64,000 bases of DNA from Clostridia bacterium (lineage in GTDB: Bacteria > Bacillota > Clostridia > TANB77 > CAG-465), in NCBI GenBank assembly GCA_045604405.1, contig JAZUNZ010000003.1, positions 20,574-84,573 of the forward strand, in the 5' to 3' direction. The notes below the pieces were generated by a model. The model did not search any database. It saw only the letters and a list, made by a program, of their open reading frames with translations, and was not told where the DNA came from. The translations under genes and the position numbers were made by a program. Below are positions 2,189-62,986 of the stretch, in pieces. Numbering within the stretch: the stretch's first letter is position 1; each line of letters starts with the position of its first letter.

Positions 2189-3718
2189 TTATACAATATT
2201 AATAAAAAATTTTTCATCAATACCTGTAAATTGTGTATATCTTTTTGATTCTAAAAATGGTTTATATTTAGATTCTTTAGTAACAACTTTTATTTTATTT
2301 GCTTTTTTTATAATAGAATTTTTTATAGTTTTTAATTGACTATTTTTTTCGTTTAAAATTCTTTTATATGAACTTTTATTCTCAATTTTAGCAATAATGT
2401 CTTTACATTCTAAATCGAATTGTTTTAATTGTTCTATCTCCTCTAGTAATTGAATACAATTTTCTGCATTTTCAATTTCTAATTTTTTCTCGTTTAATAA
2501 AACATTATACTTTATAAATATAGACTTTAATTCATTATAGAAATTTGTATTTTTATCTATATTCTTTAGGATTTTATATATTATATATATTATTTTTGAT
2601 AAATTAAAATTAGTATAATTATTTCTATTAAAATTATCTTCTCCAAAATAATCAGATAAATTTCTCATTAGTTTTGCATTTAAACTTATTTGTTGCTTAT
2701 ATTTTGGTATTGAATTTCCATCTGCAGTTTTTCTATTTTTACTTACCTTCGGTAATTCATATTCAAATGGATATCTTCTCGTTATGTCAAAAGAATCTAT
2801 ATTATAGCAATATATTGGCTGATTGTGTGCAAGCATATTTCTAAATTCACCTAAATAACACAATATTGTTTTAAATGTATTAATTTGTGATTCCTCTTTA
2901 TCTCTAATTTTCTCACTCTTTCCTTTTTTATCCTTAGTTATATTTAATTGAGTAAAAAAGTTTGTACAATTTAAAAATATATTTCTAGAATCTTCCTCCC
3001 TTAAATTTGCTATTGCATAATATGTTTGATTCATTGCTAATTCATTAATTATAATCCAATATGGTACTGTTAAATTTTGTTCTCTTTTTCTTTTTATTGG
3101 TTTTGATTTTGTATTATCATATTTGTCTATTATTAATTTCATAGTATCAAATGCTTTATTTTTTATTGATGATGTATTATAGTTATACATGTTAACTAAA
3201 TAATCTGCTTTAGCATTATTATCATTTAAATATGAGATAAAAATATTTTTCATGCTTTCCTCTATAATCAAAGTATATTTTAAAAGCATTAATCTTAGTT
3301 CATGTTCAAACTTATACATCCTTACAAAGTCACCATATTTTGTTGTATTGCTATACTTATGCAAATGATATTGGATTTGTCTTATGTTTTCCTCTTTTTC
3401 TGTTAATGAATTAGCTTTCAATCCATATTTTTCACATATTTTATCACATATTTTTTCATATAGTTGTTCTGGTTTTACATCTGGTTTTATTTTGAAAATA
3501 TCTCTATAGAAATCGATATTTTTATTTTGTAATATATTATTTCTAATTGTATCTATGTACTCAATATCTTTAACAAATAAATTCTTATATGCATTTACAA
3601 CTTGATAATAGCTATATCTTCTAAATAAAGCCTTTTCACCTTTGTCAAATTTTATTTGCTTTAATTCTAATGTTTCAATTAATTTATTTGTGCTATTAGT
3701 ATTCAAACTTTTTAACAA
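2189..3718 (-). CDS. Abi_2 family (AbiD/AbiD1/AbiF-like) abortive-infection protein, 509 aa
   Basis: N-terminal pattern LIETLELKQIKF...EKALFRRYSYYQVVNAYKNLF, mid motif FEHELRLMLLKYTLIIEESMKN, and C-terminal FRNMLAHNQPIY (RNxxAH, HEPN-like). All are typical of Pfam Abi_2 as I remember it. The exact start is uncertain: the TTG at 3718 abuts the SD, and the TTG at 3706 is an alternative. Confidence 0.8.
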   Translation of the reverse strand: MLKSLNTNSTNKLIETLELKQIKFDKGEKALFRRYSYYQVVNAYKNLFVKDIEYIDTIRNNILQNKNIDFYRDIFKIKPDVKPEQLYEKICDKICEKYGLKANSLTEKEENIRQIQYHLHKYSNTTKYGDFVRMYKFEHELRLMLLKYTLIIEESMKNIFISYLNDNNAKADYLVNMYNYNTSSIKNKAFDTMKLIIDKYDNTKSKPIKRKREQNLTVPYWIIINELAMNQTYYAIANLREEDSRNIFLNCTNFFTQLNITKDKKGKSEKIRDKEESQINTFKTILCYLGEFRNMLAHNQPIYCYNIDSFDITRRYPFEYELPKVSKNRKTADGNSIPKYKQQISLNAKLMRNLSDYFGEDNFNRNNYTNFNLSKIIYIIYKILKNIDKNTNFYNELKSIFIKYNVLLNEKKLEIENAENCIQLLEEIEQLKQFDLECKDIIAKIENKSSYKRILNEKNSQLKTIKNSIIKKANKIKVVTKESKYKPFLESKRYTQFTGIDEKFFINIV

Positions 3719-3787
3719 CTCCTTTATTTATAAGTCTGTTTTTTAACGCATTTATAATATCATATAATTAGTGAAATTTCTACAATT

Positions 3788-4291
3788 TTAACCCTTTTTA
3801 TCAAATAGATTTGCATTAGCATATAAACTTTCAAAAAATTCATCTGGATAATCTCGCCCCTTATATCCTGGATTATAATTTTTTTCTCCCTTTTTATTAG
3901 TTATATTATTATTTCTTATATTATTATCTTCCGTATTTTGATGGATAGCCTGTCCATTTTTTGATGGATACATATGTCCATTATTTAATGGATATGGTAC
4001 ATCATTTAAATAAATTTTTCTCTTAATTATTCGTTGATTTTCATTCCTAATAACGTCTCGAATTATAAATTTTTTCTCCTCTAAATGTGTTATCCAACTC
4101 GATACTGTTTTTCGATTTACACCTAATTTTTCAGCTAAATATTCATTGCTTGCAAAACAATATCCTTCTTTGCATGTAAGAGATGTTATTATTGCATATA
4201 TCAATTTTTCATTTGGTTTTAATTCTTTATTATATAAAACTGTTGCAGGAATTACTGAATAATATCCTATTCTATTTTCATTTTCTTTCAT
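3788..4291 (-). CDS. helix-turn-helix protein, phage/plasmid replication-organiser-like N-terminal wHTH
   Basis: YYSVIPATVLYNKELKPNEKLIYAIITSLTCKEGYCFASNEYLAEKLGVNRKTVSSWITHLEEKKFI is the pattern of HTH_36/DnaD-N-like proteins of mobile elements. Start moved to the ATG at 4291 (SD GGAGTGG). Confidence 0.5.
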   Translation of the reverse strand: MKENENRIGYYSVIPATVLYNKELKPNEKLIYAIITSLTCKEGYCFASNEYLAEKLGVNRKTVSSWITHLEEKKFIIRDVIRNENQRIIKRKIYLNDVPYPLNNGHMYPSKNGQAIHQNTEDNNIRNNNITNKKGEKNYNPGYKGRDYPDEFFESLYANANLFDKKG

Positions 4292-33584: not shown

Positions 33585-34018
33585 TAGACTTTAAACCCTC
33601 TCCTATATAAATAGTTCTTTTGTTTCATTTCGTCGTATGACTTTAATTTTCCACATTTAAGTTTTTCTACGACTCTTTCTTCATAGTCTGCTTCCTTCAA
33701 AACATCTATTTCTTGTTCGATTATACTAGCTTTTATGCCCTTTTGCAATAGTTTGTTGGATATTTCGTATATTGAATAGTTTTGCATTTTTTCGCACTGC
33801 TTTATATATGATTTAACATAACCTATATCGTCTATATATCCCAAGTCCTTTAAGTACTCTATTTCCTCTTCAATAACTGAAGGGGCCACCTTTAACCCCT
33901 TCAGCTTAGTTCTTACTTCATATTCAGTTTTTTTAGAAATTCCTATATATCTTATTGCTTTGTCTCTAGCATATATATTTTCTTCACTATTATTCAAATT
34001 AGTTCTCCTCTTCAACAA
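33584..34018 (-). CDS. recX: RecX family regulator (short, 144 aa)
   Basis: Immediately downstream of and overlapping recA. Repeated helical units ([19 protein letters not shown]...GYIDD..Y). Confidence 0.7.
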
Positions 34019-35063
34019 GATCTATTGTATCATCATCATCAATTTCTTCTATTTCACCAAGACTCTTTTCAAATGCTAAGTTAAAGTTATCTCTTACTTT
34101 TTCTTCTATTTGCTTCATTGCTTCAACATTTGCTTCTAAATATGCTTTAGCAGCTTCTCTACCCTGACCTATTTTCTCTCCATTATATGAGAACCAAGCT
34201 CCGCTTTTATTTACTATATCTAAATTTACTGCTAAATCTAGTATACAACCAGACGTAGATATACCTTTTCCATACACTATATCAAATTCAGCTTCTCTAA
34301 ATGGAGGTGCAACTTTGTTTTTAACAACTTTAACTTTAGTTCTAGATCCCATAACTTCTCCGTTTATTTTTATTGCTTCTTGTTTTCTAACTTCTAATCT
34401 TACTGAAGAATAGAATTTAAGTGCACGTCCTCCTGGTGTTGTTTCAGGATTTCCAAACATTATGCCTACCTTTTCACGTAATTGGTTAATAAATACCGCA
34501 ACAGTTTTAGACTTAGCAAGAACACCTGTAAGTTTTCTTAATGCTTGAGACATAAGTCTAGCTTGAAGACCTACATGCGAGTCTCCCATTTCACCGTCTA
34601 TTTCAGCCTTTGGAACAAGTGCTGCAACGGAGTCAATTACTATAATATCTATTGCTCCACTTCTTACTAATTGTTCTGTAATTTCTAATGCTTGTTCTCC
34701 AGTATCCGGTTGTGATACAATTAAATTGTCCACGTCAACTCCAAGATGTTTAGCATAAACAGGATCTAGCGCATGCTCTGCATCTATGAAAGCAGCAATG
34801 CCGCCCATTTTTTGAGCTTCAGCTATCATATGAAGTGCTACTGTAGTTTTACCTGAAGATTCTGGTCCATATACTTCAATTATTCTACCACGTGGCACAC
34901 CGCCAATTCCTAACGCTATATCTAAACTTAGAGCACCTGTAGGTATAGCGTCAACATTAACACTTCCTACTTCACCTAATTTCATTACTGATCCTTTTCC
35001 AAAATTTTTCTCAATTTGTGACAAAGCTATATCCAATGCTTTTTTTCTTTCTTCTGATATCAT
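33999..35063 (-). CDS. recA: recombinase RecA
   Basis: Canonical RecA (GPESSGKTT Walker A, L1/L2 loops). Confidence 0.98.
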
Positions 35064-35083: not shown

Positions 35084-35131
35084 AGAACGTTTGTTTGAAT
35101 GTATTATACAATACGTACATTTGTTTGTCAA
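35084..35131 (-). promoter_or_regulatory. recA promoter (TTGACA - 17 - TATAAT) with Cheo/LexA-type boxes
   Basis: -35 at 35126-35131, -10 at 35103-35108. Box AGAACGTTTGTTTG at 35084-35097 has one mismatch to GAAC-N4-GTTC. A weaker box CGTACATTTGTTTG at 35113-35126 lies in the spacer. Confidence 0.6.
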
Positions 35132-35314: not shown

Positions 35315-35614
35315 TTACAGCTGAACAAACTTTTTGCTAGTGTCAAATTCATAGTTTAATAAAGGTTCTCCATTATCAACTTTTGTAATTTCTAGCGAAT
35401 TCATTAAAACATCTGCATAACTATATGACAATTTTCTAGTACTGTCAGCTTCCCTTACTACAAACAAATTTGAATACGCACTATCTATTGTTCCTCTTTT
35501 GTTTACTTTTTTATTCCTACCGACGTTAGACTTGATGTCTATTTCCTGTCCAATGTAACTTTCAACATCTTGTCTTATCTTTTGCATAGACTCTTTAGAA
35601 ATCACTGTCATCAC
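35315..35614 (-). CDS. veg: Veg family protein
   Basis: ...IKSNVGRNKKVNKRGTIDSAYSNLFVV...SYSYADVL... aligns with B. subtilis Veg from memory. Confidence 0.75.
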   Translation of the reverse strand: MMTVISKESMQKIRQDVESYIGQEIDIKSNVGRNKKVNKRGTIDSAYSNLFVVREADSTRKLSYSYADVLMNSLEITKVDNGEPLLNYEFDTSKKFVQL

Positions 35615-35776
35615 CTCTTAATGCCTGAATTATAGCACGCTGCGCGTATTTTGTCAAAGTAGCGCGAAGCCTGTAACAGTTTAATATTTCAATATTATGT
35701 TTATGCCGTATTTGGTTTTTGCTTAAAAGTGAGCAACACCTCGCTTGATGTTGCTCATTTATTACAATTTGATTAA

Positions 35777-60595: not shown

Positions 60596-61444
60596 TTATT
60601 CCTCCTTTGTTGTTTTTTCTTCTACTACTTCTTCAGTAGCTTTTCTTGGCTTTCTGTTGTTTGGTCTTGATTGTTTTCTTTCTATTTTGTCTTCGCCCAT
60701 TTCTTTAACTAGTTGTTCCATTGTTTCAACTTCACCATCTAGTTCTAGATCTTCCATAGGTTCTCCGCTCTTACCATGTAAAACAGCGTCTGCCATTTTA
60801 GCTGTTATTAATCTTACAGCTCTTACTGCATCATCATTACCAGGAATTACATAATCTACATCGTTAGGGTTACAATTTGAATCTATTAAACCAATTGTTG
60901 GTATTCCTAATTTTCTTGCTTCCTTAGTACAAATCAACTCTTTTTTAGAGTCTACTAAGAAAATAAGTGATGGAAGTTTTTCCATATTCTTAATACCGCC
61001 AAGGTTTTGATTTAATTTTTCCATTTCAAGTTTTAACTTACTAACTTCTTTCTTTGGAAGCACATCGAATGTTCCATCTGCTTCCATTGTTTCTAATTCA
61101 ACAAGTCTAGCAATTCTTGCTCTTATTGTTTTAAAGTTAGTTAAAGTTCCACCTAACCATCTACTGTTGATGTAGTACATTCCACATCTTTCTGCTTCTT
61201 CTTTGATACATTCTGCTATTTGTTTTTTAGTTCCAACAAATAATACTGTACCACCTTCACTAGCCACTTTGTTAACTAGTTCGTAAGCTTCAACAGCTTT
61301 CTTTAATGTTTTTTGAAGGTCAAGAATGTATATTCCATTTCTTGCTGTGAATATGTATGGAGCCATTCTTGGATCCCATCTTTTTGTTTGGTGTCCGAAG
61401 TGTACACCAGCTTCTAGTAATGCTCTCATAGGTATAATTGACAT
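60596..61444 (-). CDS. rpsB: 30S ribosomal protein S2 (with a charged C-terminal extension)
   Basis: [19 protein letters not shown]... is canonical S2. Confidence 0.97.
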
Positions 61445-61555
61445 TTTTCTTCCTCCTTTTTTATTCCTCCACAGACATTTTCATCTACATAACCTCTTTC
61501 GAGGAAAGGCAATAGACTGTGCCTGTGTGTGTATTATCGCACATGCGACATCGTT

Positions 61556-61584
61556 AGTATACCATATTCAAATTGCTTTTTCAA
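61556..61584 (-). promoter_or_regulatory. putative rpsB promoter TTGAAA - 17 - TATACT (TGG extended -10), followed by a structured leader of about 110 nt
   Basis: -35 at 61579-61584, -10 at 61556-61561. The leader contains the CCTC-GAAA-GAGG hairpin, and CACAGAC/GTCTGTG pairing next to the SD. Confidence 0.5.
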
Positions 61585-61602
61585 GTTTTTTTAGTATTTT
61601 TG

Positions 61603-61631
61603 TTGACATATATTAAAATTTGTTGTATAAT
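61603..61631 (+). promoter_or_regulatory. perfect consensus sigma-A promoter TTGACA - 17 - TATAAT, back-to-back with the rpsB promoter
   Basis: -35 at 61603-61608, -10 at 61626-61631, spacer exactly 17 nt. No protein gene lies downstream on the plus strand. Confidence 0.6.
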
Positions 61632-61637
61632 ATCTTC

Positions 61638-62010
61638 ACTGTTTATAGTTTTGTAAACACGCAATTGCATGTTTAGTTATTTGTTTGCTATCACCATGGC
61701 ACTTGTTTTGGTATCCTCCGAAGTCTTTAAGTGTCGTGTTGGTATTAATATATAAAACTCCAGCCCGCCTCCCGTTCTATCTTGTTCATAGGCTCAAACC
61801 ATTTCTAAGTTTTGCCACAAAACTCTCACCTCCTCGTCCTTTATAACGCAAAATTTTCACACTCCGGGCTGGCCGTGTACTAGTTTAATGTTGCTTGTTT
61901 ACAACAGTTTAAAAGTACACAAATAGATGTTCATCCAGAACATCTTCTCATCGCCGGTTGTTCAATAGAGCAACCAACTTAAGAGACCGCTCATTTTTTG
62001 AGCGGTCTTT
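61638..62010 (+). ncRNA. candidate novel structured RNA of about 370 nt (family not recognised)
   Basis: Consensus promoter upstream and an intrinsic terminator with a U-tail on the plus strand. GC is about 38-40% in a roughly 30% background. Many helices: 8-bp CCAGCCCG/CGGGCTGG enclosing about 100 nt, GATGTTC/GAACATC, and a long GTAC..TTTAA..TGTTG hairpin. Two helices contain G-U pairs only if read on the plus strand; one favours the minus strand. Strand call is tentative. Confidence 0.35.
61982..62010. terminator. hairpin AGACCGCTCA-ttttt-TGAGCGGTCT; U-rich tail on the plus strand
   Basis: 10-bp perfect stem. It also lies 22 nt downstream of the minus-strand LCP gene. Confidence 0.7.
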
Positions 62011-62032
62011 CCATTTGAATTATATTGTATGT

Positions 62033-62986
62033 TTATTGTTCATTTTCTTCTATTTTTCTAGTATATATCCAGTCTTCAGATATAATCCTTCTAGCTTCCT
62101 CTTCATCAACTAAAACGCACGACGTTCCATTTACTGTATATGAGATATTTTCTATAGGCATGTTAACTGACGTTATATCTTTAAGATCAATCTCTTTTAT
62201 TTCGGAAATATATTTCATTGCTTCTCTTACAGTTACGTTTGTGTTTGTATTTTCTAGTATAACGTTTGCTACTTGTGGTAATTTTAATATGTTTTTTGCA
62301 GACATCATGTTATCTATTAAAGCTGTCATTACTTTTCTTTGCATCTTTCCTCTAGAAATATCCCCATCAGCATAGTCTCTATTTCTTACTAATATTTCCA
62401 CCTGCTCAGCGTCTAATATTTGTTCGCCCTCTGGAAATGCAAAATACCACTCGCCAGTTTTTTTGTTAAGTCTCCATATTTCCTCATCAAGCGTTATCTT
62501 TAGTCCACCTATTTCGTCTATAATAGCAGGAATCGCATCTAATTTTATTATAGCGTAGTAATCTATTTCAACATCCAAAATATTCTCAACTTCCCAAATA
62601 AATTCCTCAGTATGTTTTCCGCCATAATATATAGAATTTATTTTATATGTTGCTAGTGGATTTTCTGTATATGTGTCTCTTGGAATGGACATCATGTATA
62701 ACTTGTTGTTTACGGTGTCATATTTTGCATAAATTATACTATCAGTTCTTAAGCCGTCTTTATCTACGCCCGCAAACAGCACTGAAACATTTTCCTTTTT
62801 TGGTTCCGTTAAGTAATCATTTTCCAGTATGTTTGAGCCGGCTTGTACATAACCAACGTCCATTATGCTGTTTACTCTGTATAACAAAATCCATAACAAT
62901 ATAGACATAGCCGTTGCCGCAAACGAAAACATTGTTATTTTACTACATAAACTTCTCTTGTTTTTCTTTTTCAAATCTTGTCTCAT
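62033..62986 (-). CDS. LytR-CpsA-Psr (LCP) family protein
   Basis: N-terminal TM, then NVSVLFAGVDKDGLRTDSIIY...MSIPRDTY...NSIY...YYAIIKLDA is the LCP pattern. Confidence 0.85.
   Translation of the reverse strand: MRQDLKKKNKRSLCSKITMFSFAATAMSILLWILLYRVNSIMDVGYVQAGSNILENDYLTEPKKENVSVLFAGVDKDGLRTDSIIYAKYDTVNNKLYMMSIPRDTYTENPLATYKINSIYYGGKHTEEFIWEVENILDVEIDYYAIIKLDAIPAIIDEIGGLKITLDEEIWRLNKKTGEWYFAFPEGEQILDAEQVEILVRNRDYADGDISRGKMQRKVMTALIDNMMSAKNILKLPQVANVILENTNTNVTVREAMKYISEIKEIDLKDITSVNMPIENISYTVNGTSCVLVDEEEARRIISEDWIYTRKIEENEQ

Follow-up and report, generated by a model that had tools for sequence, protein, structure and literature searches.

A predicted family of structured non-coding RNAs encoded between rpsB and an LCP-family gene in uncultured gut Clostridia

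Results

The interval between rpsB and the LCP-family gene

The stretch of DNA analysed here (the window) is 64 kb long and comes from an uncultured gut member of the Clostridia. Within it, rpsB and a gene of the LCP family are separated by 588 bp. For this gap the original prediction had claimed two back-to-back promoters, one of them a perfect TTGACA-17-TATAAT on the plus strand with no open reading frame (ORF) downstream, followed by about 370 nt of GC-elevated sequence with many helices and by a terminator with a 10-bp stem and a U-tail. The genes and signals concerned, including two genes elsewhere in the window, are as follows.

33999-35063, recA, preceded by a perfect promoter (Pfam)
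35315-35614, Veg-family gene (veg), preceded by a perfect promoter (Pfam)
60596-61444, minus strand, rpsB (Pfam Ribosomal_S2)
61584-61556, minus strand, rpsB promoter, TTGAAA-17-TATACT (promoter scan)
61603-61631, plus strand, sigma-A/sigma-70-type promoter, TTGACA-17-TATAAT, 12 of 12 matches
61982-62016, plus strand, intrinsic terminator, a 12-bp stem (61982-62010) followed by CCAUUUG
62033-62986, minus strand, LCP-family gene (Pfam LytR_cpsA_psr), stop codon at 62033

The two promoters are indeed present and divergent, and the plus-strand one has exactly the sequence claimed for it. Transcription from it is predicted to start near A61638, about 7 nt past the promoter. Three perfect TTGACA-17-TATAAT sites occur in the window, against 0.16 expected from shuffled sequences; the other two, at 35103-35131 and 35629-35657 (both minus strand), lie upstream of recA and the Veg-family gene, so a perfect promoter here marks genes that are expected to be strongly expressed. 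The RNA promoter is kept in all eight of the homologous units described below, and GC content in the RNA region is 0.40-0.42 compared with 0.25-0.35 in the flanks. The claim that no ORF follows the promoter needs qualifying, as a 53-amino-acid plus-strand ORF with a TTG start, the only one of any size on this strand, exists at 61685-61846; it lacks a Shine-Dalgarno sequence and is not conserved in relatives. The terminator hairpin was also found, with a stem of 12 bp, but the U-tail claimed for it is weak and interrupted in the window (CCAUUUG), where the consensus terminator scan made no call; homologues have clear T-tailed hairpins at this position. The window hairpin probably serves the convergent LCP gene as terminator too. 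For the LCP protein of the window, the database entry (P0001) has 276 amino acids compared with 317 for the ORF listed at 62033-62986; the annotated start is therefore 41 codons further downstream, and the start given for the ORF is provisional. No second copy of the RNA gene was found in the 64-kb window.

The proximal part of the gap is accounted for by the rpsB promoter and leader. This 5' leader (61445-61560, minus strand) hardly varies among the relatives, whether or not they carry the RNA; an example, read on the plus strand, is UAGACUGUG..UGUGUGUGUAUUAUCGCA. It matches the Rfam t44 model, the Escherichia coli rpsB leader, at 61460-61549 (minus strand) with 20 bits against a gathering score of 44, and probably serves S2 autoregulation, with poor coverage of this clade by the present t44 model.

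Known RNA families and coding potential

The whole window gave no match to Rfam 15 at gathering thresholds, a collection that includes OLE, ROOL, GOLLD, raiA, RsaE and RNAIII. At E <= 10, the region 61400-62100 gave only the weak t44 match to the rpsB leader on the minus strand and two chance matches, and at E <= 1 the eight related loci gave only a chance match to CyaR, on the wrong strand. The family is thus new and absent from Rfam, which agrees with the earlier view that the RNA is not a tmRNA, RNase P RNA, SRP RNA or common riboswitch. A literature search for rpsB-adjacent non-coding RNAs in Clostridia returned nothing specific. The suggestion that the RNA might be a divergent 6S-like RNA was rejected: it folds into several domains and not into one long hairpin with a central bubble, and no 6S family was matched at E <= 10. 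Among the eight family RNAs, no ORF on either strand keeps its position, length or sequence, and the plus-strand ORFs of the homologues have no Shine-Dalgarno sequence and, for the most part, a TTG start. A small-protein gene was rejected on these grounds.

Conservation, duplication and loss in relatives

The rpsB flanks of 80 GTDB species representatives (the best with 74% identity) held no homologue detectable by blastn or nhmmer, and in none of these 80 is there a similar gap upstream of rpsB that is free of ORFs and contains a divergent consensus promoter. Relatives were reached via homologues of the LCP protein with 60-82% identity. Syntenic contigs have the gene order RarA, DUF5711, CvpA, LCP, gap, rpsB, tsf, and fall into the following groups.

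L083, L084, L086-88 / L093-98 and L104: LCP-rpsB gap of 569-650 bp with a single unit
L099: a single unit, on a contig that breaks off inside rpsB
L101-L103: LCP-rpsB gap of 1191 bp (2958-4148 in L101), two tandem copies
L092: LCP-rpsB gap of 252 bp (2126-2377), RNA absent, with the terminator hairpin and traces of a decayed promoter still present
L105: gap of 217 bp (region 2971-3811), an FGase gene between LCP and rpsB, no RNA

The unit found in relatives comprises the promoter, the 5' hairpin, conserved linkers, four helices and a T-tailed terminator. Syntenic species are close at rpsB (93-97% amino-acid identity), yet neutral sites are saturated, with about 44% identity at fourfold degenerate positions of the LCP gene. 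In L101-L103 a TTGACA-17-TATAAT or TATACT promoter precedes each copy and a T-tailed terminator ends it. Comparison of the L101 paralogues gives the picture seen between species, a mosaic in which the scaffold is conserved and the loops have diverged. The spacer of about 90 nt between the L101 copies contains a further promoter-like site, TTGACA-17-TAAAAT.

The LCP protein of L092 is the closest long match (81% identical), yet this locus has no RNA. Its empty site, with a decayed promoter and a retained terminator, resembles a deletion and not a clean insertion site, and a mobile element was rejected as an explanation. The gene that lies between LCP and rpsB in L105 belongs to the N-formylglutamate amidohydrolase family (FGase). 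At L089-L091 (LCP 63% identical), rpsB-tsf does not adjoin LCP, an S11 peptidase gene follows directly and frr/cdsA/rseP are nearby; in the wider group, therefore, the rpsB-tsf pair has either joined or left this locus. The RNA is absent at every more distant rpsB locus examined. A metagenome scan with the LCP alignment returned only two short, distant loci, and viral contigs scanned with a pattern for the 5' module gave no matches.

The RNA gene is thus conserved in a restricted group of gut Clostridia that are uncultured, where its place is invariably between rpsB and the LCP-family gene, and it has been both duplicated and lost. The conservation of promoter, 5' module, helices and terminator, in sequence and in structure, together with the tandem duplication, bears out the claim of a novel structured RNA. 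The RNA had also been proposed to be an abundant housekeeping or regulatory RNA. Its absence from L092 and L105 shows that it is dispensable and, with its absence from all distant rpsB loci, points to an accessory RNA and not a universal housekeeping one; the regulatory half of the proposal fits better.

Fold and anatomy of the RNA

The predicted transcript is about 375 nt long in the window, close to the length first estimated, and 365-446 nt in relatives; the anatomy given here is based on eight distinct sequences across that range. The plus strand of 61638-62012 folds with -106.4 kcal/mol compared with -68.6 +/- 4.8 for dinucleotide shuffles (z -7.85), and all eight family RNAs fold better than their shuffles (z -3.5 to -8.8). 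Minimum free energy (MFE) and centroid folds agree on seven separate stem-loop domains, counting the terminator. Upstream of the terminator the plus-strand elements are as follows.

61638-61654, plus strand, A/U-rich single-stranded 5' leader with consensus GUUAAAAUUUUGUA (alignments; unpaired in the fold)
61655-61674, plus strand, P1, an 8-bp hairpin with a 4-nt loop, interrupted in the window copy by one C.A mismatch
61675-61688, plus strand, U/G-rich single-stranded linker with consensus UUGAUGUUCGUUUGU (alignments)
61689-61744, plus strand, P2, a long hairpin with six G.U pairs (fold)
61745-61759, plus strand, conserved A/U-rich linker of the AUAUAUAAAAC / AUAUAUAAAC type (alignments)
61760-61872, plus strand, P3 domain, closed by a helix of 61760-61767 with 61865-61872 (fold)
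61875-61920, plus strand, P4, an outer helix GUGUACU/AGUACAC with a variable inner hairpin (fold, RNAalifold)
61925-61945, plus strand, P5, a hairpin of 8 bp with the loop AUCCA (fold); kept with an altered loop in L099
61956-61975, plus strand, P6, a hairpin of 8 bp (fold); L099 has a hairpin of other sequence in the same place

The 5' module has a mean pairwise identity of 71%, against the approximately 44% at LCP fourfold sites. In the P1 alignment 95% of cells are paired, both sides have changed in three of the eight pairs, and no slid register is comparable. The base of P2 is conserved (UAUCACCG / CGUUGAUA type), its upper stem and loop are variable, and the apical loop is pyrimidine-rich in most members, the window loop bearing UAUCCUCC. 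The P3 helix of the window clamps about 97 nt that are C-rich, G-poor, mostly unpaired and contain two CCUCC motifs; across the family this closing helix has 8-14 bp, is wholly different in sequence from species to species and clamps 90-170 nt. The internal loops of P4 are conserved as AGUUUAAU and AGUUUAAA in the window, with the family form AGUUUAAU and AGUUUUA, and RNAalifold predicts 12 pairs for P4 with compensatory changes in seven of them. One to three further hairpins lie between P4 and the terminator in the family. The consensus terminator scan called the P5 hairpin (61925-61945) terminator-like on the minus strand, with the tail AUUUGUGUAC, and this site could slow LCP read-through towards rpsB.

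P2 and P3 were too divergent for column-wise alignment, and duplexes of cognate and non-cognate strands were therefore compared. Strands were taken from position-defined windows, and each was paired with its own partner or with the partners from the other seven RNAs. The P3 closing helix gave -17.3 kcal/mol with its own partner and -8.3 with others, and the P2 upper stem -10.9 and -6.5; for each, one of 20000 permutations reached the observed sum. The P4 outer helix gave -9.9 and -6.6 kcal/mol, its sum being reached by 15 of 20000 permutations. A generic count of long-range stems against shuffles was dropped as too permissive in AT-rich sequence. Four helices (P1-P4) are thus kept through compensatory changes or cognate pairing, and the best-conserved parts of the RNA are its A/U-rich single strands and the internal loops of P4.

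The central C-rich domain

The central domain of the eight RNAs has 24-33% C and 10-18% G, and the MFE fold leaves roughly half to two thirds of its bases unpaired. No 5-mer or 6-mer is common to the species beyond chance. The window RNA has three CCUCC motifs and the family seven, a marginal excess over the 3.2 expected (p ~0.04), and several homologues have none; UCCC and CCCC show no enrichment in the eight RNAs. GGA is depleted on the plus strand (14 observed, 26.1 +/- 4.6 expected). The flanking genes have a GC skew of the same sign on the plus strand as the RNA region, and some of the surplus of C over G could thus be background; the raised C content of the central domain itself is not. 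Duplexes predicted between the RNA and 56 translation-initiation regions gave no signal above shuffled RNA, a weak test as these regions came from 64 kb only, and a search for antisense matches to targets within the window likewise gave no signal.

Strand and expression

Folding energies and z-scores did not discriminate between the strands of the eight RNAs. Summed helix energies (-355 kcal/mol for the plus and -323 for the minus strand) and the numbers of G.U pairs (32 and 21) modestly favour the plus strand in these predicted helices. The gene signals provide a stronger argument for this strand than the energies: the conserved promoter, the T-tails and the duplicated unit all belong to it. 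Upstream of the element on the minus strand there is nothing promoter-like and nothing conserved. No public run contained this organism: searches matched at most 5% of the sampled words or none at all, and four mapped runs gave no real coverage of the RNA body. Overall, the element is very probably a real non-coding RNA gene that would be transcribed from the plus strand.

Discussion

The interval between rpsB and the LCP-family gene has, as judged from sequence comparison, what bacterial small RNA (sRNA) genes generally have: its own conserved promoter and terminator, no conserved ORF and a structure maintained by compensatory changes. The explanation that we consider best overall, and hold with about even confidence, is that it encodes an independently transcribed, structured, non-coding riboregulator that acts in trans. 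We propose that transcription would start about 7 nt past the consensus sigma-A promoter and stop at the intrinsic terminator, and that P1, the base of P2, the A/U-rich linkers, P4 and the terminator would form a conserved scaffold. This scaffold would display two pyrimidine-rich, G-poor and largely unpaired regions, the apical loop of P2 and the large loop clamped by P3, and these exposed C/U-rich loops may base-pair with the purine-rich ribosome-binding sites of target mRNAs. Pairing of C-rich unpaired motifs with Shine-Dalgarno regions is an established mode of action of sRNAs in Firmicutes (PMC2790875, PMC6158497, PMC5419742), and the Rsa RNAs with UCCC motifs, RsaE/RoxS and IsrR all direct exposed C-rich RNA to G-rich ribosome-binding sites (PMC2790875, PMC6158497, PMC5419742, PMC9410917). 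We take base pairing as the leading mechanism because exposed C-rich RNA has this established use in low-GC Gram-positive bacteria, and by that analogy we regard it, tentatively, as possible. The C-rich unpaired central domain, the count of CCUCC and the depletion of GGA all count in its favour; the lack of a conserved loop seed counts against it, as does a duplex scan that stayed at the level of shuffled RNA, although that scan covered 64 kb only.

Another possibility, which we consider almost as likely as base pairing and would still call doubtful, is that the RNA serves as a sponge or scaffold for a protein, with the A/U-rich strands docking the protein and the C-rich domain being read by its composition. 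It stands so close to base pairing because composition is conserved in the centre where sequence is not, and because conservation across the RNA peaks in A/U-rich single strands and internal loops. Composition and lack of pairing persist in the central domain with no motif common to species or to tandem paralogues, which recognition by composition fits better than a conserved seed does; conservation is highest in the single-stranded A/U-rich segments and the P4 internal loops; and the consensus promoter suggests the high abundance expected of a titrating RNA. Candidate partners are Rho, through rut-like sequence, ribosomal protein S1, a KH-domain protein (KhpB) and Hfq, and a thrice-repeated (A)GUUUAA-type motif is a further candidate for protein docking. 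However, none of these proteins is encoded beside the RNA gene, the repeat was noticed by eye, and since the gene has an intrinsic terminator of its own there is no need to invoke the RNA as a simple Rho termination site. It is rather unlikely, though worth stating, that the family represents a new kind of abundant titrating RNA in which a conserved scaffold carries a fast-evolving, helix-clamped, C-rich and G-poor single strand read by composition; this would cover two forms, a sponge for Rho, S1 or a KH protein and a general anti-Shine-Dalgarno mimic that damps translation initiation broadly, and the two taken together are still rather unlikely. We know of no compositional sponge of such a type in Clostridia.

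The remaining explanations are unlikely. One is that the minus strand is the functional one, as a purine-rich RNA with GGA/GGAGG motifs that titrates CsrA or ribosomes, or as a 3' untranslated region of LCP or an extended rpsB leader produced by read-through. The helices are present in either orientation, the minus strand too is more stable when folded than its shuffles (z -4.7), it would bear 3-10 GGA motifs per RNA, and the two P1 mismatches, in the window and in L084, become G.U pairs there. Such a reading is nevertheless improbable given a minus strand with no promoter-like or conserved site upstream of the element, consensus promoter and T-tails that all face the other way, and a tandem duplication that copies the plus-strand unit; moreover, TCC, the plus-strand counterpart of a minus-strand GGA, is not above the expectation from composition, and rpsB retains its own promoter and leader at loci without the RNA element. 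We find it slightly more improbable still that the plus-strand promoter acts in cis on the convergent LCP-cvpA operon, by collision or by read-through antisense RNA, with the structured body being secondary. The RNA gene does converge on LCP, the two have a common terminator hairpin and the U-tail is weak in the window; the compensatory changes in the helices, however, argue for a function of the RNA itself, and in L101 the rpsB-proximal copy has a T-tailed terminator to itself, some 560 bp away from LCP. That the element encodes a small protein, such as the 53-amino-acid ORF at 61685-61846, seems hardly credible: ORFs of 20-67 codons occur on both strands in every homologue, but they show no conservation, those on the plus strand have TTG as the usual start codon and no Shine-Dalgarno sequence, and the central region cannot be aligned while the helices covary.

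The trans-acting, structured RNA that we prefer is new as a family and unusual in architecture, and is of a known kind, the trans-encoded bacterial regulatory RNA. To our knowledge, almost nothing is known of the regulatory RNAs of uncultured gut Clostridia, and a well-delimited gene with a consensus promoter, covarying helices, natural knock-outs and a natural tandem duplication offers a tractable entry point. The combination of a conserved scaffold with a domain that is clamped by a helix, constrained in composition and divergent in sequence is unusual among bacterial sRNAs, and could mean either fast-diversifying recognition of targets or a protein sponge read by composition. If the RNA is an ordinary C-rich base-pairing sRNA, it would be a useful yet routine addition to the catalogues of RNA families.

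Comparison with known systems sets the family apart from each of them while showing where it has parallels. With 6S RNA it shares a strong promoter and presumably the abundance of a non-coding RNA, and it differs in its several-domain fold, in having no Rfam 6S match at E <= 10 and in being absent from close relatives. CsrB/RsmZ resemble it in size, in the high abundance to be expected and in a poorly conserved sequence that is constrained in composition or in short motifs; however, the GGA repeats that define their loops are depleted here on the transcribed strand (14 against 26). Like RsaE/RoxS, the UCCC-motif Rsa RNAs and IsrR, this is an RNA of low-GC Gram-positive bacteria with unpaired C-rich regions (three CCUCC in the window RNA), but those RNAs have about 90-180 nt and strictly conserved C-rich seeds, whereas the present family has 365-446 nt, no C-rich sequence in common, only marginal motif enrichment and no Rfam match.

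A closer parallel in form is RNAIII of Staphylococcus aureus (Rfam RF00503), a multi-hairpin RNA of 514 nt with its own strong promoter and an intrinsic terminator, whose C-rich loops pair with Shine-Dalgarno regions; among staphylococci the ends of RNAIII are conserved and its centre is divergent. The present RNA is likewise a large, multi-hairpin Firmicute RNA with its own promoter and terminator, conserved ends and a divergent centre. Unlike RNAIII, it has no embedded ORF such as hld and no agr locus nearby, its C-rich regions have no conserved motif, it belongs to a different bacterial class and the two are not similar in sequence or by covariance model. Multicopy tandem sRNA families are represented by Listeria LhrC1-5, Pseudomonas RsmX and Vibrio Qrr. 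Although the RNA described here occurs singly in most relatives as in the window, exceeds LhrC and Qrr several-fold in size and has no homology to these families, the two tandem copies of L101-L103, each with its own promoter and terminator, repeat their pattern of conserved scaffolds and diverged loops.
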